A DNA stretch of 24,000 nt from Commensalibacter papalotli (ex Botero et al. 2024) (GCF_947179115.1 NZ_CAMXCI010000006.1:28575-52574); one strand, 5' to 3'. Shown: positions 1-19,366, counted from the first letter of the stretch. The notes: a model not told the origin generated them from the sequence alone. Program-made: numbers and translations.

Positions 1-318
1 GCAGCCCCTTATATTCGATATCATACTTTGGTTTTATATGGCGATAATGATCAGCTTGTGCCTATGGGTTCTATGTATACCGTGTGGGAAAAATTCCCTA
101 AATGGGTAAGAAAAGACTATGTGCCTGGAGGCTATCATTTATTATTAAGAGATAAAAACCGTAAAATAGTAGCCAAAGACATTATTACTTGGATTAATGA
201 TCCAGACCAATGGTTACCTTCTGGTGGTGATGCTGCTTCATCTGCATGGATGTCTGTTAAAGGTAAAGGAAAAGTTCCTTTTTTTATGCCCAGTCAAGTG
301 GATAATATTGTTCACTAA
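1..318 (+). CDS. alpha/beta-fold hydrolase (lysophospholipase / monoacylglycerol lipase-like), C-terminal part only; 5' end outside window
   Basis: Frame is open from base 1 (AAPYIRYHTLVLYGDNDQLVP...). The LYGDNDxLVP acid loop and GGYHLLL catalytic-His context are typical of the C-terminal third of alpha/beta hydrolases. Stop TAA at 316-318. Confidence 0.55.
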   Translation, partial: AAPYIRYHTLVLYGDNDQLVPMGSMYTVWEKFPKWVRKDYVPGGYHLLLRDKNRKIVAKDIITWINDPDQWLPSGGDAASSAWMSVKGKGKVPFFMPSQVDNIVH

Positions 319-815
319 CATTGCTGTATTAATTTTTGCATCTCTTGTTGATCCAGTAACCTTTGATTAGCGCTGCCTCGAAAAGACAGTTCTAAATTTT
401 TTTGAGATAATAAAAAAGGGCCATCAATTAGGAGATCTGTCATGGTTAGCAAATCTATAATTGCATGGTTCTGTTTGCTCATTTTTAATAAATTTTCAAA
501 AACATAACCTGTATAGATAGTAATATGTTTTTTTATCGAATGAATTTTTTTAGCTAATTGCACCAAAGGGGCAGCCTGCATGAAAGGCTCGCCACCAGAA
601 AATGTAATGCCATCCAATAATGGATTTTCCTGAAATTGTTCAAAAATGGTTTCAATATCCATACAAAATCCACCTGTGAAAGGGTGTGTTTTGGGGTTGT
701 GGCACCCTGGACATTGATGGGGACAGCCTTGCGTAAAGATGACAAAACGCAAACCTGGCCCATCAACGATTGATTCCTCGACAACGCCACTAAGGCGTAG
801 TTGATGAGCAGTCAT
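315..815 (-). CDS. nrdG: anaerobic ribonucleoside-triphosphate reductase activating protein (radical SAM)
   Basis: CxxxCxxC radical-SAM motif (GCPHQCPGCHNP), plus IVDGPGLRFVIFTQGC and FSGGEP motifs of class III RNR activases. Lies immediately downstream of nrdD. The ORF track starts at 851, but the ATG at 815 (MTAHQLRLSG...) gives the usual short N-terminus. Start is uncertain (815 or 851). Confidence 0.9.
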   Translation of the reverse strand: MTAHQLRLSGVVEESIVDGPGLRFVIFTQGCPHQCPGCHNPKTHPFTGGFCMDIETIFEQFQENPLLDGITFSGGEPFMQAAPLVQLAKKIHSIKKHITIYTGYVFENLLKMSKQNHAIIDLLTMTDLLIDGPFLLSQKNLELSFRGSANQRLLDQQEMQKLIQQC

Positions 816-1020
816 GTTTAACACGGTCTTTTTCTTCTGCTTGTTTAGCATTATTAAAACGATCTACGGTTCCCACGAGGTATCCAGTAATACGGCGTGT
901 TCTTGCAAAACCGATATTTTCACCAACCATTGTTTGATGAGGGGGATTTGCGGATGTATTCGTTTGATTTTCAAGTTTAATCGTCATAATTTTCTCATTT
1001 ATGGTGATAGGTTGGAACAT
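790..1020 (-). CDS. nrdD: NrdD C-terminal glycyl-radical segment, in a different frame from the NrdD body (frameshifted 3' end, or a separately translated small ORF with alternative ATG at 987)
   Basis: Translation contains FARTRRITGYLVGTVDRFNNAKQAEEKDRVKH, the class III RNR glycyl-radical motif (RxxGY ... RVKH). This frame is closed upstream by TAA at 1060-1062. The body ORF stops at 995-997. Confidence 0.7.
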   Translation of the reverse strand: MFQPITINEKIMTIKLENQTNTSANPPHQTMVGENIGFARTRRITGYLVGTVDRFNNAKQAEEKDRVKHDCSSTTP

Positions 1021-3256
1021 TTGGGTATTGCTGGTGCAAAAGACTAAGCTTTTCGACGCTTATAGCTTCACCTTCTTTACGTCCGCATCGGGGGCAGACA
1101 TTATCAATAACACCGACATATCCACAAACAGGGTCTCTGTCTAAGGGATGATTAATGGCACCATAACCAATGCCTTTGGATTGCATATGACGTATGATCG
1201 TTTCAAAAGCATCAAGATTTTTACAAACGTCACCATCAAGTTCAATATAAGTAATATGACCACCATTTGTTAACGCATGATAAGGCGCTTCTATATCAAT
1301 TTTCTTATGTGTTTTTATTGGAAAGTAAACGGGAACATGGAATGAGTTTGTGTAATATTCTCTATCTGTAATTCCTAGTATACTTCCGTATTTTTCACGA
1401 TCCATCATAACAAAGCGTCCACTTAATCCCTCAGCTGGGGTTGCGATCAGGGAAAAATTAAGCTTTGTCTTTTTGGCTTGTTCATCCATGCGTTCTCTCA
1501 TATGAGAAATAATTTTCAGCCCAAGTTCTTGTGCTTCTTTACTCTCTCCATGATGAACCCCGATAAGGGCTTTTAGTGTTTCTGCAAGTCCAATAAAACC
1601 TGCGGTTAAAGTTCCGTGTTTTAATACTTCTTCAACTGTATCTTCCGAATTAAGCAAATGGGAATCAATCCAAATTCCTTGACCCATCAAAAAGGGATAA
1701 TTTTTAACTTTTTTTTGACTTTGAATTTTTAACCGATGTAATAATTGTTCGATAACCAGATCGATTTTTTCATCTAAAAGTGTAAAAAACAGATCAATAT
1801 TGTGATCAGCGTCTAACCCTAATCGTGGAAGATTAATGGAGGTAAAACTTAAATTACCACGCCCACATATTTCAGTTCGATTTTCATCATGTGCATTGCC
1901 CAGAACGCGAGTACGACATCCCATATATGCGACTTCTGATTGATAAGAGTTAGGTTGGTAATATTGATAATTAAAAGGGGCGTCTATAAAGCTGAAATTT
2001 GGGAAAAGTCGTTTAGCAGAAGTTGCCATAGCTTGTTTAAATAAATCGTAATTTGGATCAATTTTTTCAAAATTAACGCCAGATTTTACTTTGAAAATTT
2101 GTACAGGGAAAATAGGGGTCTCCCCATTTCCTAATCCTGCCTCTGTTGCTTTAAGAAGGTTATGAATTGCCATGCGCCCCTCTTCAGAAATATCAGTTCC
2201 ATAATTGATAGAACTGAAAGGGACTTGGGCACCTGCTCTGGAATTCATAGTATTCAAGTTATGAATAAAAGCTTCCATCGCTTGATATGTACGACGGTCA
2301 GTATTGGCTAGGGCTTTTTTACAGGCATAATGATGTGCTGAAATAAGTGCTTCTGTTGAAACGGAAAGGTTGTTAACTTGTTTTAGTTTTGCTTCAAATT
2401 TAGAAATTAAATTAATATGAATATCTTCTTGAAAATGAGATTTCAGGGTCTCTAGTAAAAGATTAATATCCTGCTCAGTCATATCGGTTTTAATTTGAAG
2501 ATACATGGCGAATATTTTCCAATATTCTTGTTTAAAGGTTTTTTTTACCCCTAATGCCATTGCATAATCAAAATTAGGAACACTTTGCCCCCCATGCATT
2601 TCGTTTTGATTGGCTTGTATAGCAATACATGCAAGCGCTGAGTAGCTTTCTATAGAATTTGGCTCTCTTAAATATCCATGCCCTGTTGAAAAACCATTTT
2701 CAAAAAGGGTAATAAGATCAATTTGACAGCAAGTAGCCGTCAACATATAGAAATCTTTGTCATGAATATGAATATCACCATTTTGGTGAGCTTTAGAAAT
2801 ATTAGGTGGCAGAATATAATTATCTATAAAAAATTTTGATCCTTCTGAACCATATTTTAACATCGTTCCCATTGCTGTATCGCCATCTATATTGGCATTT
2901 TCTCTTTTAATATCAGCATCTTTGGCAGAGCTATAGGTTAGTTTTTTATATATATCCATCAAATAGGTTTCACTATTACGGATTTTAGTATGCTCGGCAC
3001 GATATAAAATATATGATTTAGCCGTATCAGCATAATCGTAATGGATTAAAGTTCGTTCAACTATATCTTGGATTCCTTCAACATGATTAACATAATCTTG
3101 GTTGATGTTTTGGCAAACTTTTTCAGTTAAAAATAAATGATCTGTAGGTGTCATGTTTTCATCAAGTGTTGCATTATTGGCTTTGATGATTGCATTCAGA
3201 ATTTTAACTTGGTCGAAAGGTGCTAGAGACCCGTCTCTTTTGATAATGTGTGTCAT
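995..3256 (-). CDS. nrdD: anaerobic ribonucleoside-triphosphate reductase (class III), catalytic body lacking the glycyl-radical tail in this frame
   Basis: N-terminal ATP-cone (MTHIIKRDGSLAPFDQVKILNAI). Also ENANIDGDTAMGTMLKYGSE, GDIHIHDKDFY, TCCQIDL and the C-terminal Zn-site-like VCGYVGVIDNVCPRCG. Start placed at ATG 3256 (AAGG 7 nt upstream). The 21 extra codons up to 3319 in the ORF track overlap palindromic, regulatory-looking DNA. Confidence 0.93.
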   Translation of the reverse strand: MTHIIKRDGSLAPFDQVKILNAIIKANNATLDENMTPTDHLFLTEKVCQNINQDYVNHVEGIQDIVERTLIHYDYADTAKSYILYRAEHTKIRNSETYLMDIYKKLTYSSAKDADIKRENANIDGDTAMGTMLKYGSEGSKFFIDNYILPPNISKAHQNGDIHIHDKDFYMLTATCCQIDLITLFENGFSTGHGYLREPNSIESYSALACIAIQANQNEMHGGQSVPNFDYAMALGVKKTFKQEYWKIFAMYLQIKTDMTEQDINLLLETLKSHFQEDIHINLISKFEAKLKQVNNLSVSTEALISAHHYACKKALANTDRRTYQAMEAFIHNLNTMNSRAGAQVPFSSINYGTDISEEGRMAIHNLLKATEAGLGNGETPIFPVQIFKVKSGVNFEKIDPNYDLFKQAMATSAKRLFPNFSFIDAPFNYQYYQPNSYQSEVAYMGCRTRVLGNAHDENRTEICGRGNLSFTSINLPRLGLDADHNIDLFFTLLDEKIDLVIEQLLHRLKIQSQKKVKNYPFLMGQGIWIDSHLLNSEDTVEEVLKHGTLTAGFIGLAETLKALIGVHHGESKEAQELGLKIISHMRERMDEQAKKTKLNFSLIATPAEGLSGRFVMMDREKYGSILGITDREYYTNSFHVPVYFPIKTHKKIDIEAPYHALTNGGHITYIELDGDVCKNLDAFETIIRHMQSKGIGYGAINHPLDRDPVCGYVGVIDNVCPRCGRKEGEAISVEKLSLLHQQYPNVPTYHHK

Positions 3257-3320
3257 AACATACCTTGAAAACGTAATGTTTAAAGAATCAAGATGTAATT
3301 TAAGAATGATTCTTAACATT

Positions 3321-3336
3321 AAACTATATATAGTAT
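3321..3336. promoter_or_regulatory. candidate NrdR box upstream of nrdD
   Basis: aaACTATATATAGTat matches the published 16-bp NrdR palindrome (acaCwAtATaTwGtgt) at 14/16 positions. A weaker half-match, tcacaatatatttcaa, lies at 3374-3389, 53 bp away centre to centre. Confidence 0.45.
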
Positions 3337-3363
3337 TTAAATATAAATCAAACTACTATTTGT

Positions 3364-3377
3364 ATGATTTTGATCAC
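3364..3377. promoter_or_regulatory. candidate FNR/CRP-family site upstream of nrdD
   Basis: aTGATtttgATCAc has a TGAT-N4-ATCA core, 8/10 to the FNR consensus TTGAT-N4-ATCAA. On the - strand it also reads TGTGA-N6-TCATA (CRP-like). It lies about 114 nt upstream of the ATG at 3256. Confidence 0.3.
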
Positions 3378-3768
3378 AATATATTTCAAAACGATTTTTG
3401 ATGACTTTTTGTATGTATGCAACAGCTATAGTTTTTAATTCGATTTTTTTTATTAAGGTTTTAAGAATTTATGAATTTTTTTTATGATTTATAATCATCA
3501 CTGAAGGAAATAGAGCTATATTTCAAAATAGATATAGTTCGATTAAATTATACTAACGGTGATTTTTTATAGACCTCAGTTCATGTTAATAAATGAGGTC
3601 TTAGATTCTTCTGATTCATAATATATTTATGGATCAATAATATAAATTATTTTGATACTATCCTAAAATGGTCAGGATAAACAATTTAAAGTTTGAAACA
3701 AGAATTCTAACCATGATTTTTATAGAACCGAAGATGCAACAGCTAGTAAAGAAAAATATGATCTTTAA

Positions 3769-3811
3769 TTGCTTACTTGTAAGTTTAGTTCAATCTTTTA
3801 CAAGTAAGCAA
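3769..3811 (-). terminator. hairpin immediately downstream of the repeat-Hint gene (possible terminator)
   Basis: Perfect 13-bp stem, ttgcttacttgta (3769-3781) with tacaagtaagcaa (3799-3811), and a 17-nt loop. It begins 9 nt after the stop codon. There is no clean U-run after it on the - strand. Confidence 0.4.
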
Positions 3812-3819
3812 TATTTATT

Positions 3820-6280
3820 TTAAACAGCAATAGACTGAATTTGTTTTTGTTTAAGAGGATATGCTCTATCAGAACAAACTTGAATAATTAATTTTCGTTC
3901 TTTATGATTATTGTCAGGCAGATTCAATAATGCTTTTCCTTTTGTCCAACGACAAGGTTGTTGTTCCAAAGTATGCCACCCTGGTAAATCATCTTGCGTT
4001 AGATGATTGGTCATATTAATTACTTGTATATTATAGGCTGCACTTACGATTTGGATACTTCCAACTGAGATACCTAACTCATGACGGTTATCTTCAAAAG
4101 GTCCATCAATATCATTTAAGCGGCTTGTTCTGGATACAAGATAAACGCTTTTAATATTTTCATCAGGTAAAGGGAATATATATCGACCTTGAAAATGTGA
4201 TATAGGTTCAATAGTTAAACCATCTTGTGTAATCAAATGAAAATCAGGATCATGGGTAAGTTGATTTTTATCTTGCATCATTGGTAAACCCATCTTTATA
4301 GCACGTTGCAATAACGTATGATAAAGAGGTTCAACGTAACTGCGATCAACCATTAAGGGGGCACCAGCATCTTTCCCCCAAGTTTTGGGTTTTTTTGGGC
4401 GTATTAAAATAGCACAATCACCATGTTGACTAAATTGGGTTTGATTTCCTGTATCCAGATAACTCTCTGTTAACACTCCATTTGCCCAAATAACTGAATG
4501 CTCCTCTGTTTCAAAATGATAATAAGTGTAGTTTGTAATCGAATAATCATAAAAAATACTATACCCATTCACAAACATACGAGCAGGGGTGAATTTTCCA
4601 TTAAAAAACAAACAATGCTCAGGGGTAATTAATAGATCTTTGCAAGGAGTACCTTCAGCAATAGCATCTTTTAAAATGCGTACAGGATACCCTGCTTCAT
4701 CATCATGTAATGTTGGATTAACTTTTACGGTTTTATTTCCGACCCAACGAACAGATTGAACATCTTCTTTATTTTGTTGCCAGTTAAAACTAAGGATTTT
4801 ATCACCAATACGAATATCCTCTACCGCGATTTCTCCTTCAAGCGTTTTAATCATAGAACCCGCAAGAAAACAAACCTCATAAATTAAATTACCAGTTGAA
4901 TCAGATGCAAGATGATATCCTTCATTTTTGGCGCCAGGAATATTTAAGGAAATTTTATTACCATTATTAAGAATTAAGGTTACAAAATCACCATTGATAT
5001 TTCCATTAACATCTTCAAAGGCTACGTTAGTAACATTAGAGGTTTGAATGCCTGCTAATTTAATTTGATCTGACCAACTCGTGCTTGCACCATCAAAATT
5101 GTTGATTAAGGTTGTTACGATACCACCATTTTCAAGACCCGAAATAGTTAAGCCATGATTACCATTTCCAGGAAAATTGATTGTTCCACCAGCATCTGGA
5201 TAAATTGTGGCGTAACCCCCATGAAGAGTTATTTCACCATTTATTTTTCCACCAGAAGAAACCGTCAGTAACCCTCCGAGATCTACACTAGTAATAGAGC
5301 CACCTGAGGAAACTGTTACATCTCCATTAGCATAAACATATGTATTAATGGCACTTCCGCCAGAAGAAACAATAAGCGATCCAACACTTGTATTAGAAAT
5401 AATGGCTCCTGAGGCAACTATAAGCGTCCCTTGAGCAAAAACCTGCGTATCAGACATAGTTGCTCCCGAAGCAACTATAATTTTAGCGCTAGTATAAACA
5501 CTCGTATGAATAAAATTCATATTAGAAGGGATTGTAAACTCCCCTCCGATACTTGCGTTATAAAACGTCACCCCTGAGGGGCCTATAAGATCGGCAGAGT
5601 TAATATATGCATTAGAAATAGTGACCCCAGAGGAAACAGTTAGTTGTCCACCAGAGTAAATAAATATACCAGAAACATTCACCCCTAAAGCAACTGTTAA
5701 CTGCCCTCCAGAGTTAATAGTTGTATCAATAATACTTGCTCCTGAAGCAACTGGGATCTGCCCTCCAGAAGAAACATATATACCAGAAATATTTATCCCT
5801 GAAGAGACCGCATATTGTACGCCAGATAAAATAAATATATTCGCGACATTTGCTCCTGGGGAAGCTGTAAATAGTCCTCCATCAGAAATCGTTATTTCAG
5901 TAATACTTGCTCCAGAGGAAGCGGTAAACTCTGCTCCAGAGAGAATAATTGTACGAGAAACACTTGCTCCAGAGATAACAGAAAATAGACCTCCAGAATA
6001 AATAGATGTATCAGAAACACTTCCATTAGAAGTAACTATTAAATTCCCACCAGATAAAATATTGGTATTAGAAGCATTCCCGTTTGAAACAACTGTTAAT
6101 TGCCCCCCCAGCATAAATGGATGTATCAGAAACTCTTCCATATGAAGATACCGTTAATTGTCCTCCAGAATAAATGGATGTATTATAAGCACTTCCAAAT
6201 GTAGAAATTATAAGCTGTTCTCCATAGGAAATGGATATATTAGAAACAATTTCACCTGAGGAGACTACTGTGTTTGACAT
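3820..6280 (-). CDS. AIDA-type beta-helix repeat / Hint-domain protein, interrupted by a +1 frameshift in a G7 tract (two ORFs, 6280-6068 and 6141-3820; about 819 aa if the tract were G6)
   Basis: The 70-aa ORF (6068-6280) and the 773-aa ORF (3820-6141) carry the same 19-aa repeat. Removing one G from 6103-6109 reads ...IYAGGQLTVVSNGNASNTNI..., joining them exactly. Hint_2-like block: CFLAGSMIKTLEGEIAVEDIRIGDKIL...PVRI...LLITPEHCLF...YYHFETEEHSVIWANGVLTESY. Confidence 0.85.
4432..4872 (-). other. Hint (Hedgehog/intein-like, Hint_2 / bacterial intein-like) module within the repeat protein
   Basis: Starts with the nucleophile Cys (TGT at 4872-4870) in YEV|CFLAGSMIKT. No intein-type C-terminal His-Asn + Cys/Ser/Thr junction and no homing-endonuclease insert were seen. 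Confidence 0.75.
5212..6280 (-). repeat. about 20 tandem, degenerate 57-nt (19-codon) coding repeats
   Basis: The protein reads as consecutive 19-residue units, e.g. GGQLTVSSYGRVSDTSIYA / GGQLTVVSNGNASNTNILS / GGNLIVTSNGSVSDTSIYS / GGQLTVSSGVTISNAYINS. This is the SGGxxxVxSGxxxxxTxI rung pattern of AIDA-I/Ag43-type passenger beta-helices. Confidence 0.85.
6103..6109 (-). repeat. homopolymeric tract, G7 on the coding strand (C7 on +), at the frameshift site
   Basis: The + strand reads t-g-ccccccc-a at 6101-6110. The frame change between the two repeat-bearing ORFs maps exactly here. Confidence 0.9.
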
Positions 6281-6930: not shown

Positions 6931-6970
6931 TTATAAAAACATAAGATGCTTAATAAAAGCACCTTATGTT
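6931..6970 (-). terminator. rho-independent terminator of the PFOR operon
   Basis: On the - strand: aacataaggtgctt-ttatt-aagcatcttatgtt, a 14-bp stem with one G-U pair, followed by TTTTTAT. It lies 50-90 nt downstream of the stop at 7020. Confidence 0.6.
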
Positions 6971-7019: not shown

Positions 7020-8030
7020 TTATTTAGGATGAAAGGAACCAACTAATTTAATATAATGGCTACGTTCATAGGCTTGATTGTTTTTTAATTTCTGCCAGCT
7101 CATTTGACCACGCATTAACTTAAGATCTGTTTGTTGACGAGCTTTAAGCCACATGCAAAGACCATCAAGTAAAGCTTCAACATAGTTTGGACCATGTCGT
7201 AATAGCGCACTGGTTGTCATTACTGTATCAGCTCCTGCCAATAAAAATTTGACAACTTGTTGATAGTCATCAACGCCAGTTGAAGCTGCAAGAGATGCAT
7301 TAACCCGTCGTGCTAATAATCCTATCCATTGCAGAGCAATTAACCCTTCACTCATGTTACTGAGGCTATAACGAGATGTTATATCCAAATTTTGTATATC
7401 TATATCAGGAGACATTATTCTATTGAATAAAACCAACCCATTTGCGCCTGCATCAATCATACGCTGAGCAAGATTCCCCATTGAGGTAAAATAAGGAGAT
7501 AATTTTACTGCCAAAGGAATATCGACATGCTTACGAATATTCGCGATAATACTAATATAACCATCCTCGATTTGTTGGCTTGAGATATTAATATTTGTAG
7601 GAACAGAGAAAATATTTAGCTCTAAAGCATCTGCACCAGCTTCTTGGATAAGTTTTGCATATTCTACCCAAGCACTATTTGTATATCCATTTAAACTGGC
7701 AATAACAGGCACAGAAACTGTTTTCTTAGCTGTTTCTACAAGTTTAAGATATGCTTCGGGGCCTACTCCATAAGGGCCTGAGGCAATATTATCTATGGGT
7801 AAATAGCTGCTGGCTTCAGCAGAATGATAATGATGAAGTGTATCAAGCTCTTCAAAGGCATAATCGATTTGTTCTTGAAAAAGAGAGGGCAATACAATTG
7901 CTGCTATTCCTGCTTTTTCAAGCGTTTTTAAATACTCCATATCTGTATGCATAGGTGAAGCAGAAGCGATGATAGGAGTTTTTAAGGTTAAACCCAAATA
8001 TTGACTGGTTAAGTCTATTTTATGGTTCAT
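7020..8030 (-). CDS. dihydroorotate dehydrogenase-like (class 1 DHOD / DPD domain IV-like) FMN TIM-barrel protein
   Basis: LKTPIIASASP, PVIASLNG, GADALELN, PLAVKLSP, GLVLFNR and GGV/GADxV-type C-terminal motifs of the DHOD/DPD family. The ATG lies 2 nt after the PFOR stop. Confidence 0.85.
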   Translation of the reverse strand: MNHKIDLTSQYLGLTLKTPIIASASPMHTDMEYLKTLEKAGIAAIVLPSLFQEQIDYAFEELDTLHHYHSAEASSYLPIDNIASGPYGVGPEAYLKLVETAKKTVSVPVIASLNGYTNSAWVEYAKLIQEAGADALELNIFSVPTNINISSQQIEDGYISIIANIRKHVDIPLAVKLSPYFTSMGNLAQRMIDAGANGLVLFNRIMSPDIDIQNLDITSRYSLSNMSEGLIALQWIGLLARRVNASLAASTGVDDYQQVVKFLLAGADTVMTTSALLRHGPNYVEALLDGLCMWLKARQQTDLKLMRGQMSWQKLKNNQAYERSHYIKLVGSFHPK

Positions 8031-8032
8031 TT

Positions 8033-11000
8033 TTATACTCCCACACTTTCTCTTGCTGCGATACCTGATTCAAACGGATCCGGCTGAAAGCGACTACCAT
8101 CTCTTGCAGCCAAATCTTCATAAGTTCTGTAGCGTTCGTTTACCCAGTTCTGCGCCATTTTCATTAGATACTCTGCTTCTTTAGGATTGCTTTTTAACAA
8201 TGCTTTATATCGGATTTCATTATATGCGTAGGTTGATAAGGGTAAATTGGGTTTATTAGAATCTAAACGGAAAGGATTTTGCCCATAAGTTCTCATTCTT
8301 GGGTCAAATCTAAAGAGAGGCCAATATCCCGTTTCAGTTGCTAGATGTTGTTGGTTCATTCCTTTTGTCATATCAATACCATGAGCAATACAATGGCTAT
8401 ATGCTAAGATAATAGAAGGACCATCATAAGTTTCTGCTTCTCTAAAGGCTTGCAAGGTTTGCTGTGGATTTGCACCCATGGCGACTTGGGCCACATACAC
8501 ATTACCATAAGCAATCGCTTGTAGTGCTAAGTCTTTACGAGGCGTGTGTTTGCCTCCAGTAGCAAATTTAGCAATAGCTGCCATTGGTGTTGCCTTAGAA
8601 GCTTGCCCTCCAGTATTAGAATAAACTTCGGTATCTAACACGAGTATATTTACATTCTTACCACTGGCTAATACATGATCTAAACCACCATAACCAATAT
8701 CATATGCCCAACCATCACCACCAACAATCCAAATACTGCGACGTACAAGATGATCTACCAAAGACAACATATTTTGAACACGAGCATCTTTATCTTTTAA
8801 GGGTAACAATTTCACTTTAAGCTCAGCAATCCGTTCTCTTTGCTTACGAATTTCTGATTCTTGATCCTGAGGTGCGTGAATAATGTCATCAATTAAAGAA
8901 GCATCTACTATATCTGCCAGTTCATTTAATTGTTTAACAGCAAGCTCTAATTGGTTATTTGCAGCTAGACGATACCCTAATCCAAATTCAGCATTATCTT
9001 CAAATAATGAGTTAGACCAAGCAGGTCCACGCCCTTCATGATTTTTTGCCCACGGTGTTACAGGTAAATTACCGCCATAAATTGAGGAACAACCCGTAGC
9101 ATTAGCAACTTGCATGCGGTCGCCAAATAATTGACTTAATAATTTTAAATAAGGTGTTTCGCCACATCCAGCACAGGCACCTGGGAACTCAAAGAGTGGT
9201 TGTAGAAATTGCACGCCACGAACATTGGAAAAATCGACATCTGCTCTGTTATTTACAGGGAGTTTCTCAAAAAAATCAATATTCGCTTTTTCTTGCTCAA
9301 AAATATCTGCTTTATCAATCATATTAAGCGCTTTTGTTTCAGACTCAATAAGACTATATGCAGGACAAGCTTCAACACAAAGCCCACAGCCTGTGCAATC
9401 TTCAATATAAACCTGTAAAGTAAATCTGCTTTCAGGATACCCTCTGGCATTTACAGGAACAGATTGAAACCCTTCAGGAGCATTAGCGGCTTCTTTTTCG
9501 TTATAGTAACGAGAGCGAATGACTGAGTGAGGACAGACAAAGCTGCATTGGCCACATTGAATACAAAGATCAGAACGCCATTCAGGAATGATATCCGATA
9601 CATTACGTTTTTCTAGGGCACAAGTGCCACTTGGAAAAGTACCATCTGCTGGAACTGCACTTACTGGAATAGAATCCCCTTCAGCAGCAAACATTTTTGC
9701 TGTGACTTGTTTAATAAAGTCTGAAGAATTTGCAGGAACGAGTGCTATTTTTTCAAGCTTGCTGGTTACTGTTTTAGGTACATCAACTTGTTGTAAATAT
9801 TTTAAAGCACCATCAACAGCAGCATAGTTTTGTTGAACAACATGTTCACCTTTACGGCCATAACTTTTTTGAATATGTGCTTTGATGCTTTTAATGGCTT
9901 GGTCTTTATCTAAAACGCCAGAAATAGAAAAGAAACAAGTTTGTAAAATTGTATTTACCCTAAAGCCAAGGCCTAGTTCTTTGGCTACCGAACTAGCATT
10001 AATGACATAGAATTGGATGTCTTTTTCGATAATCTGTTCTTGAACGTCTTTGGATAATTTATCCCATATTTCACTGGCATCATAAGGTGCATTCAATAAA
10101 AAAACAGAATTATGAGAAGCCAGTTTTAAAATATCTTGTCGCTCTAAAAATTCAAATTTATGACATGCTACAAAATTGGCATGCTCAATTAAATATGGCG
10201 CATCAATAGGTTCTGGCCCAAAACGTAAATGAGATATTGTTTGCGCACCTGATTTATGAGAGTCATAAACAAAGAAGCCTTGAGCATAAAGGCCAGCATC
10301 ATCACCAATAATTTTTACACTATTTTTATTAGCCCCCACGGTTCCATCAGCACCTAAACCAAAGAATACGGCTCTGGTGACTTTATCTGATTCTGGATTT
10401 AATGTTTTATCAAAAGTTAAACTGGTATGGCTGACATCATCATTAATGCCTATCGTAAAGCTGTTACGAGGATGTTCTTTATCTAGCTCTGCATAGACAG
10501 CTATTGCCATTGCGGGAGTAAAGTCTTTGTTAGATAAACCATAACGCCCCCCAATGATAAGAGGCATTTCAGATATTTTTTTACTTGCAATTGCTTGAGC
10601 CATTGCCACAATAATATCTTGATATAAAGGCTCGCCAATGGAACCAACTTCTTTATGTTGCTCTAAAACTGCAATTTTTTTGACTGTTTTAGGTAGAACG
10701 TCCAGCAAATATTGAATAGAAAAAGGACGGAAAAGACGAACTTGGATAACGCCAACTTTTTCACCTTTTGCAGCTAATAATTTAGCAGCTTGAACAGCTG
10801 TTTTCGCACCAGCACCCATTAAAATTAAGATTTTTTCAGGATCTTCTGCACCATAATAATCAAACAGTTTATACTGACGCCCTGTTAATCTTGCGAATTC
10901 ATTCATTGCATCTCGTAAAATATCAGGCACTTTTTCATAATAAGGGTTAACAGCCTCACGTGCTTGAAAAAAAGTATCTGGGTTATGGGCAGTACCACGA

Positions 11001-11641
11001 ATGAATGGATTTTCTGGATTTAAAGCGCGTGCACGATGCGCATAAACTAATTCATCATCGATCATCGTTCTAAGCACTGAATCGTCTAAGATTTCGAGTG
11101 TATTTAATTCATGAGAGGTTCTGAAACCATCAAAGAAATGTAAGAAAGGCACGCGTGATTTTAACGTCGCTACTTGTGAAAGCAATGCGGCGTCATGGGC
11201 TTCTTGAACATTTCCAGAACTAAACAAGGCAAATCCTGTTGTTCTGGCAGCCATGACGTCAGAGTGATCACCAAATATAGATAAAGCAGAAGTAGCTAAC
11301 GCACGAGCAGCCACATGAAAAACCGTTGATGTAAGCTCACCTGCAATTTTATACATATTAGGTAGCATTAACATTAACCCTTGAGAGGCGGTAAATGTTG
11401 TTGTTAATGAACCAGACTGAAGAGCACCATGCACAGCTCCAGCAGCACCACCCTCACTTTGCATTTCTTGAATATGAGGAATGTTACCCCAAATATTCTT
11501 TTTAGCCTGTGCTGCCCATTCATCAGCAAGTTCTGCCATTGTAGAGGAGGGGGTAATAGGGAAAATCGCACAGACTTCGTTTAGGCGATAGGCAACGTCC
11601 GCGGCGGCTGTATTACCATCGATTATAATTCTTTTACTCAT
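8033..11641 (-). CDS. nifJ: pyruvate:ferredoxin (flavodoxin) oxidoreductase, single-chain YdbK/NifJ type
   Basis: About 1200 aa and collinear with E. coli YdbK as I recall it. Two ferredoxin motifs (CIQCGQCSFVCPHS, CTGCGLCVEACP), TPP motif GGDGWAYDIGYGGLDHV, and ACAGCGETPY. The ATG at 11641 lies 2 nt after the upstream stop (a GTG at 11644 is also possible). Confidence 0.96.
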   Translation of the reverse strand: MSKRIIIDGNTAAADVAYRLNEVCAIFPITPSSTMAELADEWAAQAKKNIWGNIPHIQEMQSEGGAAGAVHGALQSGSLTTTFTASQGLMLMLPNMYKIAGELTSTVFHVAARALATSALSIFGDHSDVMAARTTGFALFSSGNVQEAHDAALLSQVATLKSRVPFLHFFDGFRTSHELNTLEILDDSVLRTMIDDELVYAHRARALNPENPFIRGTAHNPDTFFQAREAVNPYYEKVPDILRDAMNEFARLTGRQYKLFDYYGAEDPEKILILMGAGAKTAVQAAKLLAAKGEKVGVIQVRLFRPFSIQYLLDVLPKTVKKIAVLEQHKEVGSIGEPLYQDIIVAMAQAIASKKISEMPLIIGGRYGLSNKDFTPAMAIAVYAELDKEHPRNSFTIGINDDVSHTSLTFDKTLNPESDKVTRAVFFGLGADGTVGANKNSVKIIGDDAGLYAQGFFVYDSHKSGAQTISHLRFGPEPIDAPYLIEHANFVACHKFEFLERQDILKLASHNSVFLLNAPYDASEIWDKLSKDVQEQIIEKDIQFYVINASSVAKELGLGFRVNTILQTCFFSISGVLDKDQAIKSIKAHIQKSYGRKGEHVVQQNYAAVDGALKYLQQVDVPKTVTSKLEKIALVPANSSDFIKQVTAKMFAAEGDSIPVSAVPADGTFPSGTCALEKRNVSDIIPEWRSDLCIQCGQCSFVCPHSVIRSRYYNEKEAANAPEGFQSVPVNARGYPESRFTLQVYIEDCTGCGLCVEACPAYSLIESETKALNMIDKADIFEQEKANIDFFEKLPVNNRADVDFSNVRGVQFLQPLFEFPGACAGCGETPYLKLLSQLFGDRMQVANATGCSSIYGGNLPVTPWAKNHEGRGPAWSNSLFEDNAEFGLGYRLAANNQLELAVKQLNELADIVDASLIDDIIHAPQDQESEIRKQRERIAELKVKLLPLKDKDARVQNMLSLVDHLVRRSIWIVGGDGWAYDIGYGGLDHVLASGKNVNILVLDTEVYSNTGGQASKATPMAAIAKFATGGKHTPRKDLALQAIAYGNVYVAQVAMGANPQQTLQAFREAETYDGPSIILAYSHCIAHGIDMTKGMNQQHLATETGYWPLFRFDPRMRTYGQNPFRLDSNKPNLPLSTYAYNEIRYKALLKSNPKEAEYLMKMAQNWVNERYRTYEDLAARDGSRFQPDPFESGIAARESVGV

Positions 11642-11643
11642 CA

Positions 11644-13269
11644 CTAAATCTCACTTTGCATATCAATGGCATGACATGGACATTGCTCATAACAAGCAGC
11701 ACAACCCGTACATTTGTCTAAATCAACACTATACCCAAGACCTACCCCTAATTTCTTAATGGCGCCTTCAGGACAAGCAGCATAGCAATTGTCACATTCA
11801 TAACAATTCCCACAGGAGAGACATCGTTTTGCTTCATATTGAGCTTGTTGTTCGGTTAATCCTTCAATAATCTCATTAAAATTATCTCGATTAGATAAAG
11901 ACAGTTCTTCTTGTTCTGATTTGGTTGCGTCTGAATAAATTGGCAGATTCATTCCTTGATAGTGAATAACTCTATGCTTGGCAGCAGGCTGGTACAATGT
12001 ATCTCTTAACCACGCATTAACATAGTGTGCTGCTTTTTTACCGTGTCCGACTGCGGTGGTAACCGTTCTGTCGGCTGGCACCATATCACCACCTGCGAAA
12101 ATGCCCGCATGTCCTGTTTGCATATGTGTATCTACAATAACCGTACCATCTTTTTTAAACTCAATGCCGTCTACACTGCGTAAAAAATCAGTCTCGGTCG
12201 TTTGTCCAACAGCAAGTATTAAAGAATCAGCAGATAAAGTTTCAAATTCGCCTGTTGGCACAGGTTTGCCTTCATCATTTAACACTACTTTTTCAATGGT
12301 AATATTGGTACCATCCATGTTTTTAATGGTAGATAACCATTTAATTTTCACACCCTCTTCTAATGCTTCTTCAACTTCGAATTGGTGTGCCGGCATGTGG
12401 TTTTGATCACGACGATAAACGATGATGGCGTCATCAGCACCCAGCCTTTTTGCTGTTCTTGCAGAATCCATTGCCGTATTACCACCACCATAGATGACTA
12501 CTTTACGTCCTAATAATGGCTTCTCACCGATACCAGCTTTTTTTAATACATCAACAGCATCTAGTATTTTTGCTGAATCACGAGCGGGAATATTAATATT
12601 ACTGCCTGCTTGAGCACCGATTGCTAAATAAACCGCATCAAAATTTCCAGCTTTTTGATCATTTAATACATCAGTTATTTTATGATTAAGATTAATTTTG
12701 ATACCAAGAGTAATCAACCGATCAACTTCTTTTTGTAGGATATCACGTGGTAGACGATACGCAGGAATACCAAAATGAAGCATTCCTCCAGATACAGGGC
12801 CAGCTTCAAAAATCTCGACAGTATGTCCAAGCATTGCAAGGTGGTACGCAGCGGAAAGGCCACTTGGTCCAGCACCAATAACCATAACGCGCTTTCCTGA
12901 ATTTGGTATATTTTTTTGGAATTGCCAATTTTCCTCTAGGGCTTTGTCCCCTAAAAAGCGCTCAACAGCATGGATACTGACTGAACTGTTCAGCTCTACT
13001 CTGTTACAAGCCGTTTCACAAGGATGATAACAAACGCGTCCATGAATAGCTGGGAAAGGGTTGTTTTTTGTTAACTCAAGCCATGCCTCGTAATAATCTC
13101 CAGCTTGTGCATGTGCTAACCAGGATTGAATATTTTCACCTGCTGGACAGGCTTCATTACAAGGTGGCAGTAAATCTACATAAATGGGATGGCTTTTACG
13201 TTCAGAACCTGTTGTTTGTGGGCGCATTAAATCCACAATCCCACTCATATCATGTTGGTTTTTATTCAT
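11644..13269 (-). CDS. GltD-family (glutamate synthase small-subunit-like) NAD(P)H-dependent FeS flavoprotein with a C-terminal 2x[4Fe-4S] ferredoxin domain
   Basis: N-terminal Cys cluster region (CNEACPAGENIQ...CYHPCETACNR). Dinucleotide folds VIGAGPSGLSAAYHLA and IYGGGNTAMDSARTA. C-terminal CLSCGNCYECDNCYAACP and CTGCAACYEQCPCHAI. The track start at 13317 is a TTG; the ATG at 13269 (MNKNQHD) has GGAG upstream. Confidence 0.85.
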   Translation of the reverse strand: MNKNQHDMSGIVDLMRPQTTGSERKSHPIYVDLLPPCNEACPAGENIQSWLAHAQAGDYYEAWLELTKNNPFPAIHGRVCYHPCETACNRVELNSSVSIHAVERFLGDKALEENWQFQKNIPNSGKRVMVIGAGPSGLSAAYHLAMLGHTVEIFEAGPVSGGMLHFGIPAYRLPRDILQKEVDRLITLGIKINLNHKITDVLNDQKAGNFDAVYLAIGAQAGSNINIPARDSAKILDAVDVLKKAGIGEKPLLGRKVVIYGGGNTAMDSARTAKRLGADDAIIVYRRDQNHMPAHQFEVEEALEEGVKIKWLSTIKNMDGTNITIEKVVLNDEGKPVPTGEFETLSADSLILAVGQTTETDFLRSVDGIEFKKDGTVIVDTHMQTGHAGIFAGGDMVPADRTVTTAVGHGKKAAHYVNAWLRDTLYQPAAKHRVIHYQGMNLPIYSDATKSEQEELSLSNRDNFNEIIEGLTEQQAQYEAKRCLSCGNCYECDNCYAACPEGAIKKLGVGLGYSVDLDKCTGCAACYEQCPCHAIDMQSEI

Positions 13270-13640
13270 ATTTCTTTGAACTCCAGATTTGTGGCAAGGT
13301 GATACCTCATCACACAAATGATTATTTATTAATTCATTAAGTTTGAATTTTTTTATTTATATTAGCCTCTCAGTATCCATAAAAATTAGATTTTGTTTGG
13401 ATGTGCTGAATATTAATAATCTAGAAACAGCGGGCCTATAAATTTTGATGAAGACAGAAAAATTACAGTCTCACTATGTCAAGATAAATGATGCACTTGA
13501 CTAGGATCTATATTGCTTAAATTAACTGTATATTACAAACAATATTTAAGGTTTTTGTTAAATATATTGCTTTAAATTATAATGAAATTAATCTATTATA
13601 GTCAGAAATTGCACATCATAGTATCGTTGCAAAATGAGAC

Positions 13641-13712
13641 AAAAAGTTACTTTAAAATATAATACAACACCATTTCTTCTATAGAGTTGTTGGGTTTACA
13701 TAGTAACTTTTT
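13641..13712. repeat. 11-bp perfect inverted repeat with 50-nt spacer downstream of lacY (possible complex terminator)
   Basis: aaaaagttact (13641-13651) pairs with agtaacttttt (13702-13712). There is an inner 5-bp caaca/tgttg pairing. The T-run is part of the distal arm on the - strand. Confidence 0.3.
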
Positions 13713-13778
13713 ATTATCATAATCAGCGGTCACTTTATCATTTAAATAATTTGAATTTATGTAGATATAAATTGGTTT

Positions 13779-15047
13779 TTATGAAGTGGGCTCTATGGTA
13801 GGAACTTGTTTATTAATAACCTTGTTCACATCAACATCACCACCTGTTAAGGTGAAAATAGAGATAACTGAAAAACTAAAGGCGATAATACCCAAAATAA
13901 TATAGGTATCTTGAAATCCTATTGTTTCATATAGGTTTCCAGTTAAATATGACATTAACATAATTGCAATTTGTTTAAAAAAACAAAAGCATACAAGATA
14001 AATAGTTGCTGATAATCTAATTTCAAAAACAGTAGTAATATATTTAAAACACCCGACAATTAAAAATGGAACTTCAAACATATGGAGTGTTTTCAAAATA
14101 ATAACTTCAATAACAGAAGTAGCAAAAGCTGATCCTAAAATCCGCACAGACATAATGAAACCCGCAATTAATAGTCCATTTTTAGGCCCGATACGATTAA
14201 TAATTAAAGGAGTAAAAAACATCACTAGCGCATTTAATAATTCTCCTAGCGTGGTAACATATCCAAAAGCTCTTGTTCCCTGAGCTTCTGATGTAAAAAA
14301 GGATACAAAAAAATTGGCGAATTGTTGATCAAAGACATCATAGGTACAAGAAACACCGATAACAAATAAACTTAGGAACCAAAGTCTAGGATTTTTAAAT
14401 AATTGTAATACCAAATGAATATCAAAAGGTTTTTCTTGAACTTCAGGTGTAATTTTCTCCTCTTGAGTATTTTTATTTTCTGGGTTGGACAAATATAACA
14501 AGATTGCTAAGCAGATTGCAAAAACAGATCCCATCCAAAAAACAAACTCATTATTAATGGTCATCATATAACCAACAACAGAGGCGCATATTGCCCAACC
14601 AACACATCCAAACATTCTGGCTCTGCCAAATTCAAAATGATTATGACGACTGACTTTTTCTATATATGCTTCAATCGTAGGTGCACCACCATTATAAATA
14701 AAGCCCAAGTAAAACCCACCAACCACAGAAGCAATATAAATATTGACTTTTAGCAAAGGTCCAAGAACGAATATAAAAAATGGGCCAAACAAAACCAACA
14801 TCCCAACAATAACCCATAAGAGATGCTTTTTTGTTCCAAATTTATCTGATAACAGTCCAAAAATTGGTTGGAAAACCAATGCAAAAAAAGAAATGCTGGC
14901 AAACATAATTCCCATATTAGATTTGGAGACATGATGAATTTCACCAAGCCAAATTGGGAAAAAAGGGAAATATGCACCTATAATAAAGAAATATAGAAAA
15001 AAGAAAGATCCAAAAATCCAAAAATTTTGATTTTTAAGATAATACAT
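13779..15047 (-). CDS. lacY: lactose permease (MFS oligosaccharide:H+ symporter)
   Basis: Near-collinear with E. coli LacY as I recall it: MYYLKNx[14 protein letters not shown], FQPx[42 protein letters not shown], [18 protein letters not shown]. Confidence 0.96.
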
Positions 15048-15068
15048 GATGGATTTCCCCTTTGCCTT

Positions 15069-18170
<3,102 letters not shown>

Positions 18171-18181
18171 TCATAACTCCT

Positions 18182-18214
18182 AAATATAAATGTTATTCGT
18201 TCACATTTATATTT
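18182..18214. promoter_or_regulatory. lac primary operator (O1-like) between promoter and lacZ Shine-Dalgarno
   Basis: The - strand core AAATGTGAACGAATAACATTT (18188-18208) matches E. coli O1 AATTGTGAGCGGATAACAATT at 17/21. It sits inside a perfect 12-bp inverted repeat: aaatataaatgt (18182-18193) and acatttatattt (18203-18214). Confidence 0.8.
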
Positions 18215-18241
18215 AGAGTAATAAACACCACCACTTGTAAA
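18205..18241 (-). promoter_or_regulatory. putative lacZY promoter
   Basis: A -35-like TTTACA at 18241-18236, the same hexamer as the E. coli lac promoter. A/T-rich -10 candidates follow: TCTAAA at 18 nt spacing, TAAATA at 20 nt. They overlap the outer operator arm. The -10 assignment is ambiguous. Confidence 0.3.
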
Positions 18242-18280
18242 ATCATATAAAAGTGAGGTGTGGATATTTTCTTATTTTAC

Positions 18281-19366
18281 CTAAGATCTTGCTGATAAAT
18301 AATCTGCAATCACATATAATTGCTTAGCAAACTCTTTATCATTTGTTGAATTTAATGAATTGGCAGAAGTGCTTGTCTCTCTTTTAACTAAACTTGTCGG
18401 TAACACAAGAGATGAAATATTACTCTCGGGAGCGTTCATTTTATGTAATAATTTCTCGACAGCTTGTTTACCCAACTCCTTAAAATCTTGAGCAATAGTC
18501 GTTAACGGAGGATAAAAAAATGCGCTATCCTCTGTATCATCATATCCAATCACTGATATTTGTTCTGGGATTTGAATTCTCAGCTCATGTAAGGCACGTA
18601 ATCCCCCCAATGCCATTTGATCATTAGCAAAACAAATCGCGGTTGGGTGTTGATGAGAATAGCATAATGCTTTTGTCAAGGCATATCCCGAAGCAGAGCT
18701 CCAATCGCCTTCTTGAATACTTATTGGGGATATACGATGCTTTTGTAAGGCTTTAATCCACCCATCAAAACGTAACCGAGCAGATACAGAACTTTGAGGC
18801 CCTGTAATTAACGCAATTGACGTATGTCCGAACTCAATCAGATGTGTAATGCCTTGTTGTCCTCCCTCTCTTGAATCTGTCATTACAGAAAGGCAGGATT
18901 CTTTGGGGTCTACATCCATAAATAAAACAGGAATATTTCGACATAAATGCTGAATTTGAATTATTTGTTGCGAATTGCTGGGGATGTTGACAATAATTCC
19001 ATCGACGCGTTGTTCTAATAATTCGTTGATAACATGGTCTATTATATTCAAAGATTGATTTTTGGCCATTGCAATAACAACACTATATTTTAATTCTTCC
19101 GCATGCACCTTAACAGAAGCTGCAATTTGAGAAGGCGCGTGCAATGAAATATCTGTGGTTGCTAAACCAATCGTACTGCTTTTCTTGCCAGCCAATTGTT
19201 GGGCTACACGATTAGGCGTATAATTCAATGATTTCATCGCAGTGAAAACTGCTTCTTTTGTTTTTATAGAAACGCAAACAGAGCCGTTGATCACACGCGA
19301 AACTGTTTGATAAGACACCCCAGCCAATGCAGCAACATCTTTTAATGTTGGCTGTTTATTAAGCAT
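18281..19366 (-). CDS. lacI: lactose operon repressor (LacI/GalR family)
   Basis: HTH TLKDVAALAGVSYQTVSRVING. Also NYTPNRVAQQLAGK, LHAPSQIAASVK, SVSARLRFDGW, ANDQMALGGLRAL, VIGYDDTEDSAFFYPPLTTIAQDF. Collinear with E. coli LacI as I recall it, and directly upstream of the lacO-lacZ-lacY unit. Confidence 0.95.
   Translation of the reverse strand: MLNKQPTLKDVAALAGVSYQTVSRVINGSVCVSIKTKEAVFTAMKSLNYTPNRVAQQLAGKKSSTIGLATTDISLHAPSQIAASVKVHAEELKYSVVIAMAKNQSLNIIDHVINELLEQRVDGIIVNIPSNSQQIIQIQHLCRNIPVLFMDVDPKESCLSVMTDSREGGQQGITHLIEFGHTSIALITGPQSSVSARLRFDGWIKALQKHRISPISIQEGDWSSASGYALTKALCYSHQHPTAICFANDQMALGGLRALHELRIQIPEQISVIGYDDTEDSAFFYPPLTTIAQDFKELGKQAVEKLLHKMNAPESNISSLVLPTSLVKRETSTSANSLNSTNDKEFAKQLYVIADYLSARS

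Follow-up and report, generated by a model that had tools for sequence, protein, structure and literature searches.

Pyruvate:ferredoxin/flavodoxin oxidoreductase (PFOR) is usually pictured as passing its electrons to free ferredoxin or flavodoxin. We analyzed a 24,000-nt stretch of the genome of Commensalibacter papalotli (ex Botero et al. 2024) (GCF_947179115.1, NZ_CAMXCI010000006.1:28575-52574; hereafter the window) and found a PFOR gene enclosed between genes for a GltD/NfnB-like iron–sulfur (Fe–S) flavoprotein and a dihydroorotate dehydrogenase (DHOD)-like FMN barrel. The arrangement is best explained as one operon encoding a PFOR and two private redox partners. The trio is a further member of a known, biochemically uncharacterized operon type; new here are the two-gene core of PFOR and barrel, the mutual independence of the two partners, the clade structure of the PFORs, and the fusions of the GltD-like module (family PRK12771) to components of 2-oxoacid:ferredoxin oxidoreductases (OFORs).

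Several described systems bear on such a locus. The Helicobacter PFOR-FldA-FqrB chain runs through free flavodoxin and FqrB and includes neither an NfnB-type module nor an FMN barrel. The pyruvate:NADP+ oxidoreductase (PNO) of Euglena and Cryptosporidium converts pyruvate, CoA, and NADP+ to acetyl-CoA, CO2, and NADPH, the reaction proposed below for the trio, using a fused cytochrome-P450-reductase (CPR)-type FMN/FAD module, likewise with no NfnB-type module or FMN barrel; unlike in PNO, the NADPH module of the trio is NfnB-type and a separate chain. KorABC (2-oxoglutarate:NADP+ oxidoreductase) and PadEFGHI (phenylglyoxylate:NAD+ oxidoreductase) of Azoarcus evansii are multisubunit OFORs acting on other 2-oxoacids, each with its own FAD subunit and direct reduction of the pyridine nucleotide. 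DsrL, the NAD(P)H:DsrAB oxidoreductase of sulfur oxidizers, is a GltD/NfnB-like Fe–S flavoprotein with a C-terminal ferredoxin domain and one dedicated Fe–S enzyme as partner in place of free ferredoxin, that partner being a sulfite reductase, not an OFOR. In its proposed function, the trio is akin to DsrL, to OFORs linked to NAD(P)+ like KorABC, and to eukaryotic PNO.

A trio of the same composition has been described in Propionibacterium, where the PFOR gene nifJ1 is flanked by GltD-like and DHOD-like genes (McCubbin et al. 2020, Genes 11:1115, PMC7650540). The three genes are cotranscribed and coregulated, and an electron-bifurcating complex has been proposed; a PFOR knockout cripples growth, in a study that deleted only the PFOR and not its partners and included no enzymology (PMC7650540). 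By the published description, the gene order is that of our locus, a GltD-like gene with an extra ferredoxin domain followed by the PFOR and DHOD-like genes (PMC7650540). Unlike the window, the Propionibacterium trio belongs to another phylum, the Actinobacteria, and is likened here by description alone. We found no biochemical characterization of the trio in the searchable literature.

Operon Structure and Conservation

The trio consists of three consecutive minus-strand open reading frames (ORFs), 11644-13317 (GltD-like), 8033-11644 (PFOR), and 7020-8030 (DHOD-like). The GltD-like protein and the barrel each show 99% identity to C. papalotli proteins. The features of the locus, in window coordinates, are as follows.

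11644-13269, minus strand: GltD/NfnB-like NAD(P)-binding Fe–S flavoprotein, 541 aa (NF009410/PRK12771, 742.6 bits against a cutoff of 516; Pfam domains Fer4_20, Pyr_redox_2, and a C-terminal 2x[4Fe-4S] Fer4 dicluster).
12928-13167, minus strand: N-terminal Fe–S region of the GltD-like protein, PPCNxACP ... GRVCYHPCExAC (Fer4_20 match).
11665-11826, minus strand: C-terminal Cys-rich region of the GltD-like protein, with an RCLSC pair and, after it, two CxxCxxCxxxCP ferredoxin motifs (Fer4_7/9/10 matches).
8033-11641, minus strand: homodimer-type PFOR of the NifJ type (TIGR02176, 1723 bits against a cutoff of 911).
7020-8030, minus strand: DHOD-like FMN TIM barrel, 336 aa, no Fe–S cluster (NF005741/PRK07565, 402.5 bits against a cutoff of 303).
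13318-13778, minus strand: AT-rich noncoding spacer, presumed operon promoter region (461 bp, 24% GC).
6931-6970, minus strand: intrinsic terminator, 14-bp hairpin and U-tract (by folding, –17.6 kcal/mol).

The locus had previously been interpreted from its letters alone (the sequence-only reading), and that interpretation was partly supported, its underlying observation being confirmed. The gene order and domains it gave agree with Pfam matches and NCBIfam scores above the cutoffs, and the gene junctions, TAGTGATG and TAAAAATG, read exactly as it had claimed, with stop-to-ATG gaps of 2 nt each. The PFOR start is ATG 11641 or else GTG 11644, which overlaps the upstream TAG. The three genes are tightly linked and have one common terminator, also correctly anticipated, whose hairpin (6970-6938, then UUUUUAU) folds with z = –7.2 and is matched by none of 200 shuffles; the consensus scan overlooked it because the stem is AT-rich.

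The claimed 460-bp promoter region corresponds to the 461-bp spacer, which reaches from the stop codon of lacY to where the GltD-like gene would begin at its longest. The promoter-like hexamers found there in a sigma-70 scan, among them a CTGACT-18-TATAAT match at 13605-13576, are no more frequent than in shuffled sequence. A search of the spacer for FNR boxes gave no convincing box, the best hit being a single, uninformative site with two mismatches, and the spacer shows no conservation against C. intestini. The GltD-like gene had been drawn to 13317, and the ORF does extend there, but the start is most likely ATG 13269 (541 aa) and not the alternative TTG 13317 (557 aa), because the closest homologs are 534–544 aa long and because DNA conservation with C. 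intestini ends at 13272. An Rfam scan of the window gave no match.

The comparison with C. intestini (counterpart at locus L003, 4758-11011), the sole match of a genome scan queried with a single protein, delimits the unit. In blastn, the two loci share 83% DNA identity over 6263 nt, from 7020 to 13272, and none outside, and none of the genes flanking the trio in the window (nrdDG, a Hint/AIDA-domain gene, lacIZY, and cysDN) lies within 10 kb of the C. intestini trio. Since the identity stops at the ends of the trio and the surrounding genes have nothing in common, the trio behaves as a relocatable cassette, conserved as a discrete block in Commensalibacter. Its being kept as a unit between two species of the genus and recurring in other phyla makes it more than a chance arrangement.

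Association of Each Partner with PFOR

We collected co-occurrence data from a metagenome scan, plasmid searches, and individual look-ups. The metagenome scan used an alignment of the barrel family and returned the 80 best-matching loci, a nonrandom sample in which 71 loci, those with at least 300 nt upstream of the barrel, were informative. PFOR was located immediately upstream of the DHOD-like gene and on the same strand in 63 of the 71, the aligned ends being separated by a median of about 67 nt. Orthologs of the GltD-like gene (56–87% identity) come, by source names, from Alpha-, Beta-, and Gammaproteobacteria, Bacteroidota, and Acidobacteriota; in each of the 11 contexts examined, the ortholog immediately preceded PFOR, and even a distant member with 45% identity was paired with PFOR. 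The sequence-only reading had tied both flanking genes to PFOR and had named their usual occurrence without it as the finding that would count against that tie; these counts uphold the tie, and for the DHOD-like gene the usual situation is the reverse, downstream of PFOR.

Each partner family is thus syntenic with PFOR across phyla, but the two occur with it independently of each other and are not an obligate pair. Most pairs of PFOR and DHOD-like genes come without a GltD-like gene: an ortholog was present in only 4 of the 33 loci with a complete PFOR, and clustering of all flanking ORFs in these 33 loci revealed no conserved neighbor besides the GltD-like gene, which the clustering placed in 5 of them. 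The barrel, in turn, was downstream in 9 of the 11 GltD-like contexts (the two Commensalibacter species, L004, L005, L042, a Cytophagaceae member, a JGI metagenome-assembled genome [MAG], Phenylobacterium, and Methylovirgula) and absent in two, Pseudomonas, where pta takes its place, and Aeromonas; locus L101 holds GltD-like and PFOR genes and no DHOD-like gene. Taxa with the complete trio include Alpha- and Gammaproteobacteria as well as Bacteroidota. PFOR and barrel genes of cyanobacteria are close in the tree and on the same plasmids.

Some individual loci show variant arrangements. A Phenylobacterium plasmid (L090, 1665-9017) carries, in order, a zinc alcohol dehydrogenase (Zn-ADH), the GltD-like gene, PFOR, and the DHOD-like gene; in Azotobacter vinelandii (L001, 6960-8999), a Zn-ADH is followed after 30 nt by the DHOD-like gene and then by an IS605 TnpB-like gene, an arrangement that looks like the Phenylobacterium cluster minus its two middle genes. 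In L009 (3258-5624) and L048 (about 2886-4133), a fused NfnA-NfnB-type gene (788 aa) lies ∼0.7 kb upstream of PFOR and the DHOD-like gene. These fusions belong to one sub-clade of PFORs that have only the barrel, and they look like an independent recruitment of an NADPH-linked module beside PFOR. Locus L044 (1793-12175) contains phosphoenolpyruvate (PEP) synthase, a homolog of ADP-forming acetyl-CoA synthetase scoring below the NCBIfam cutoff, PFOR, and two tandem DHOD-like genes, and L035 also has two DHOD-like copies.

PFOR and Its Phylogeny

The PFOR itself is a complete enzyme. The TIGR02176 match spans residues 7–1179, as expected of a full-length homodimeric NifJ-type protein, and the Pfam domains POR_N, PFOR_II, POR, EKR, 2x Fer4, and TPP_enzyme_C are all present. 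Its score is 1301 bits against the solved Moorella enzyme (6CIN), and against Desulfovibrio africanus PFOR it is about 1196 bits. The protein ends after the TPP domain, with no CPR-like domain detected by Pfam, and is therefore not a eukaryote-type PNO fusion.

To place it, we built a neighbor-joining tree, without support values, from 45 full-length PFORs. Its topology tracks partner content: all 11 PFORs with a GltD-like partner, that of the window included, form a single clade, sister to a large clade with only the DHOD-like partner, and the stand-alone PFORs of Azospirillum, Escherichia coli, Fusobacterium, and Listeria fall outside both. A large PFOR clade is almost always accompanied by a private FMN-barrel partner, and in one of its sub-clades an NfnB-type NADP(H) module is present as a second private partner; this large clade covers Proteobacteria and Bacteroidota and, by published description, Actinobacteria (PMC7650540). 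The barrel is the older and far more widespread partner of PFOR, and the simplest history starts from an ancestral PFOR and barrel pair, which the GltD-like gene later joined in one sub-clade, where the barrel was lost now and then.

The clade associated with the GltD-like gene also has a C-terminal tail, RDGSRFxPD, that is absent from the barrel-only and stand-alone PFORs (consensus (R/G)(D/G)GSRF(H/x)P(D); window ∼8036-8110, and L004, L005, L042, L084–L086, L090, L093, and L094). We consider the tail a candidate docking peptide. A search of the PFORs for clade-specific internal indels that could mark a docking surface found none, the short C-terminal motif being the sole difference.

The GltD-Like Protein as an Output Module

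Fifteen cysteines of the GltD-like protein are invariant in 19 family members, down to 37% identity. Five are N-terminal (Cys37, 41, 80, 84, and 88 in the 541-aa numbering); the others are the two of RCLSC and the eight of the two CxxCxxCxxxCP motifs (together Cys483, 486, 489, 492, 495, 499, 520, 523, 526, and 530). From these counts we infer four [4Fe-4S] clusters.

The best solved relatives are NfnB-type modules, namely 9bov, 9n5u, StnC (8oh5), NfnI-L (5jca), and NfnB (4ylf), with scores of 219–311 bits against 4ylf_B, 5jca_L, 8oh5_C, and 9bov_A. As in NfnAB and StnABC, the protein has an NfnB core with FAD, an NADPH site, and two [4Fe-4S] clusters, and its IVYRR stretch aligns with the same stretch in the NADPH-binding NfnB, NfnI-L, and StnC. 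Unlike NfnB, it bears an additional C-terminal 2x[4Fe-4S] ferredoxin domain, and the RCLxC segment, N-terminal in NfnB, is C-terminal here as in StnC and 9bov. The scores against NfnB and NfnI-L are 219–227 bits, and the protein is assigned to NF009410 and to no Nfn model. Its partner, unlike that of NfnAB and StnABC, is PFOR and not free ferredoxin, and no ORF for an NfnA subunit (PyrK-like FAD and [2Fe-2S]) is found in the operon or the window. Against residues 85–508 of dihydropyrimidine dehydrogenase (DPD), the score is 116 bits. A kinship with the FAD subunit of NADH-phenylglyoxylate dehydrogenase was considered and dropped, that subunit being absent among the 25 NCBIfam matches listed for the protein.

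We searched representative proteins exhaustively with HMMER and scanned the results with Pfam and NCBIfam. The PRK12771 module was found fused to PorC (P0259, 555 bits to NF009410; P0293, by Pfam domains), to IorA (P0295, 533 bits; P0300, by Pfam domains), and to a TPP domain (P0296, by Pfam domains). A fusion to a 1200-aa PFOR was not seen among the 150 best representatives. A PorC fusion gene is followed by PorA and PorB, with PorD absent, and a stand-alone member with 46% identity closes a porC-porA-porB operon that also has no PorD (multisubunit OFOR operons L091, 3821-8184, and L100, 260-4632, in which the module is either joined to PorC or encoded at the end). The module exceeds the NF009410 cutoff in PorC and IorA fusions, in this stand-alone member, and in the distant PFOR partner with 45% identity. 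Because porCAB operons with the module have no delta-ferredoxin gene, the sequences suggest that its ferredoxin domain replaces the PorD (delta) subunit, and these operons and fusions share the design of KorABC and PadEFGHI, an OFOR with its own FAD subunit. By gene arrangement, with a 2-nt gap, the window falls into an operational class of OFORs with a PRK12771-type electron-output subunit, adjacent or fused. The idea in the sequence-only reading that PFOR is wired to NAD(P)+ gains support from the PorC and IorA fusions, the porCAB operons without a delta subunit, and the IVYRR stretch, and we conclude that PRK12771 is a portable NAD(P)H–FAD–Fe–S output module, most often placed on OFORs.

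The DHOD-Like Barrel

The barrel matches NF005741 over residues 5–334 and contains one cysteine, which leaves it without an Fe–S cluster. All of the 41 sampled family members (32 from metagenomic loci) match NF005741 and no other NCBIfam model at E ≤ 1e-60, and a literature search found no characterization of the family. An AlphaFold2 model (mean pLDDT 82.6, with low confidence at residues 61–90) retrieved the FMN domain of pig DPD as the best fold match (E = 4e-16), followed by DHOD B and DHOD 1A. On the FMN side, the family keeps N139, K176, and N203 without exception, and the glycine-rich phosphate region is likewise invariant. Cys135, the catalytic base of Lactococcus lactis DHOD B, aligns with Val143, which is also the family consensus, and the lysine after strand 2, the N-terminal FMN lysine, is apparently Leu47 (by inspection of a partial alignment). 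Lacking the catalytic cysteine of DHOD and DPD and, apparently, this lysine, the barrel is predicted to be unlikely to reduce a pyrimidine.

Two assignments were rejected. The barrel is not a DHOD of class 1A, 1B, or 2, as it has no catalytic Cys or Ser and scores 97 bits against a cutoff of 269 (NF005574), and it is not PreA, with no catalytic cysteine and 87 bits against a cutoff of 335. It resembles PreA, or the FMN domain of DPD, minus the attached ferredoxin domain: it covers only positions 2–333 of the 422 in the PreA profile, and domain V of the PFOR weakly matches positions 335–408. At the level of sequence, PFOR domain V plus barrel therefore resembles a PreA split in two.

The GltD-like protein and the barrel have between them the same sum of cofactor domains as DPD and PreT-PreA, a DHOD-fold FMN barrel and a GltD-like NADPH/FAD/2x[4Fe-4S] unit. 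In contrast to those enzymes, the ferredoxin domain is on the GltD-like subunit, PFOR lies between the two genes, the barrel has no catalytic cysteine and scores far below the PreA cutoff, and the genes are not obligate partners. With the defining features tested and not found, the trio is not a member of the DHOD, PreTA/DPD, NfnAB, or PNO families.

Electron Path and Competing Explanations

We propose that PFOR passes its electrons directly to its private partners, the GltD-like protein making the system a pyruvate:NADP+ oxidoreductase and the barrel FMN serving a nonpyrimidine acceptor, and we put the probability of this reading at about one-half. PFOR would convert pyruvate and CoA to acetyl-CoA and CO2, and the electrons would leave through its three [4Fe-4S] clusters. 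The C-terminal 2x[4Fe-4S] domain of the GltD/NfnB-like protein would dock on PFOR and take them up, passing them by way of the NfnB-type clusters to FAD and finally to NADP+, for a net ferredoxin-independent pyruvate:NADP+ oxidoreductase. The barrel FMN probably takes electrons directly from an Fe–S domain, either PFOR domain V or the ferredoxin domain of the GltD-like protein; it could then reduce a pyridine nucleotide (by hydride transfer), a quinone, or a small enoate as candidate acceptor. For a bacterium living microaerobically or by fermentation, an NADP+-linked PFOR would be fitting provided that few of its enzymes consume ferredoxin.

Direct outlets of this kind, if real, would explain how an oxygen-sensitive, low-potential PFOR is kept in aerobic or facultative bacteria with few ferredoxin sinks. 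They would also allow acetyl-CoA and NADPH to be made from pyruvate by a compact path that needs no ferredoxin, of use in metabolic engineering, and might prove to include a bifurcating enzyme of a new type. The widespread PRK07565 barrel family gains a concrete and testable partner in PFOR.

Several points weigh against this reading. The contact between PFOR and either partner is a proposal derived from sequence, and the preference for NADP+ over NAD+ rests on one motif that is not invariant across the family. The metagenomic loci were the 80 best matches to the barrel and not a random sample, and the PFOR tree is neighbor-joining without support values. The DHOD-like family also occurs away from PFOR, in A. 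vinelandii, Methylocella, Acaryochloris, and Parabacteroides and in the metagenomic loci L017, L050, and L069. The PRK12771 module is not exclusive to OFORs, since one member has no OFOR nearby and another (P0372, 531 bits to NF009410) shares a chain with a PreA-like barrel and has hydantoinase genes alongside. Finally, every one of the solved structures nearest to the GltD-like module comes from a flavin-based bifurcating enzyme, and for this reason a plain two-electron pyruvate:NADP+ reaction may be too simple a picture.

This last point leads to the alternative that survives best, essentially the Propionibacterium proposal, in which the trio would be a flavin-based confurcating (bifurcating) complex, in effect an Nfn assembled on PFOR and an enzyme class not characterized before. 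The NfnB-like FAD would merge a low-potential electron from PFOR with one from the barrel to form NADPH, the barrel standing in for NfnA as the higher-potential branch and obtaining its electron from NADH or quinol. Were this so, the driving force of pyruvate oxidation would pull a second, otherwise unfavorable donor into NADPH formation. By textbook potentials, an uncoupled transfer from pyruvate to NADP+ wastes roughly 180 mV, which counts for such coupling, whereas GltD and DPD use the same module without bifurcating, which counts against it. The kinship to bifurcating NfnB-type modules (8oh5, 9bov, 9n5u, 5jca, and 4ylf), the retention of the trio in Alpha- and Gammaproteobacteria, Bacteroidota, and, by published description, Actinobacteria, and the hypothesis and coregulation data from Propionibacterium all favor it (PMC7650540). 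The complex is nevertheless missing an NfnA-like [2Fe-2S]/FAD protein, and the barrel has no Fe–S cluster. With GltD-like and PFOR pairs existing without the barrel, and most PFOR and barrel pairs without the GltD-like gene, we regard a confurcating complex as possible but doubtful.

The sequence-only reading had instead placed PFOR between the two halves of one DPD-like enzyme. Stated as a mechanism, the GltD-like protein and the barrel would form a split DPD/PreTA-like reductase with PFOR as the low-potential donor and NAD(P)H as the alternative donor. The independence of the two partners does not fit this picture, nor does a barrel that has Val143 where DHOD B has Cys135 and scores 87 bits against the PreA cutoff of 335. 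The domain sum does equal that of DPD, the best fold match of the barrel is the DPD FMN domain, and P0372 is a natural fusion of a PreA-like barrel and the PRK12771 module, found next to hydantoinase genes; its barrel, however, reaches only 108 bits against PRK07565 (cutoff 303) and is PreA-like, not a PRK07565 member. The two-halves claim was thus not sustained, and we consider a split reductase unlikely.

The linkage could also be merely genomic, the partners acting independently (the barrel, for example, reducing a pyrimidine or another substrate, and the GltD-like protein serving as a general ferredoxin:NADP+ reductase), while PFOR uses free ferredoxin or flavodoxin. Mere colocation would leave unexplained why the barrel gene adjoins PFOR in 63 of 71 contexts and the GltD-like gene does so in 11 of 11, over several phyla, and likewise the 2-nt gaps, the agreement of PFOR clades with partner content, and the fusion of PRK12771 modules to OFOR components. 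Even granting that both partner families have members away from PFOR and that contact with PFOR is a proposal, we find this explanation quite improbable.

A reverse pyruvate synthase, in which acetyl-CoA would be reductively carboxylated with electrons that NADPH delivers through the GltD-like protein, with or without a second donor entering at the barrel, can draw on the reversibility of PFOR and on PEP synthase or PPDK-like genes beside some pairs and trios, but it is very improbable given an uphill step of ∼180 mV from NADPH unless driven by bifurcation, neighbors that point to oxidation or fermentation (pta, the homolog of ADP-forming acetyl-CoA synthetase, alcohol dehydrogenase, and hydrogenase), and the life of Commensalibacter, an insect-gut acetic acid bacterium, as a heterotroph of the sugar-rich gut.

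Metabolic Context

The direct transfer from PFOR to private partners that we favor has a plausible metabolic setting. The context fits low-oxygen, fermentative pyruvate oxidation, given the neighboring genes found across loci: nrdDG, pta, hydrogenase, PEP synthase, the homolog of ADP-forming acetyl-CoA synthetase, Zn-ADH, and glyceraldehyde-3-phosphate dehydrogenase (GAPDH).

In the window, nrdG and nrdD, encoding the anaerobic ribonucleotide reductase, are located at 315-3319 on the minus strand, downstream of the operon at a distance of 3.7 kb. The GltD-like and PFOR pair of Pseudomonas sp. CCI3.2 (L084, 1-1509) is likewise near nrdD, two U32 peptidase genes, which we take to be UbiU/UbiV-like, and nnrS, with pta adjacent. 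The resemblance hints at a low-oxygen gene island in both. The neighbors of the Phenylobacterium trio are Zn-ADH and a type II GAPDH. In the JGI MAG (L086, 1-6787), a [NiFe]-hydrogenase cluster is divergent from the trio and comprises the large and small subunits, a PyrK-like FAD/Fe–S subunit, hypA, hypF, and hycI; this hydrogenase could be an outlet from NADPH to H2.

Other Features of the Window

A complete lacI-lacZ-lacY cluster (LacI-family regulator, GH2 beta-galactosidase, and LacY symporter) lies directly upstream of the operon at 13779-19366 on the minus strand and is missing at the C. intestini locus.

A gene with an AIDA stalk and a Hint domain, also on the minus strand, is split into a 70-aa ORF (6068-6280) and a 773-aa ORF (3820-6141). 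The 70-aa ORF has repeats of the same type and reads from its start at 6280 into a G7 tract at 6103-6109, and the 773-aa ORF resumes in another frame from 6141. Loss of one G would join the two, and the split could reflect phase-variable switching, decay to a pseudogene, or an error in the sequence.

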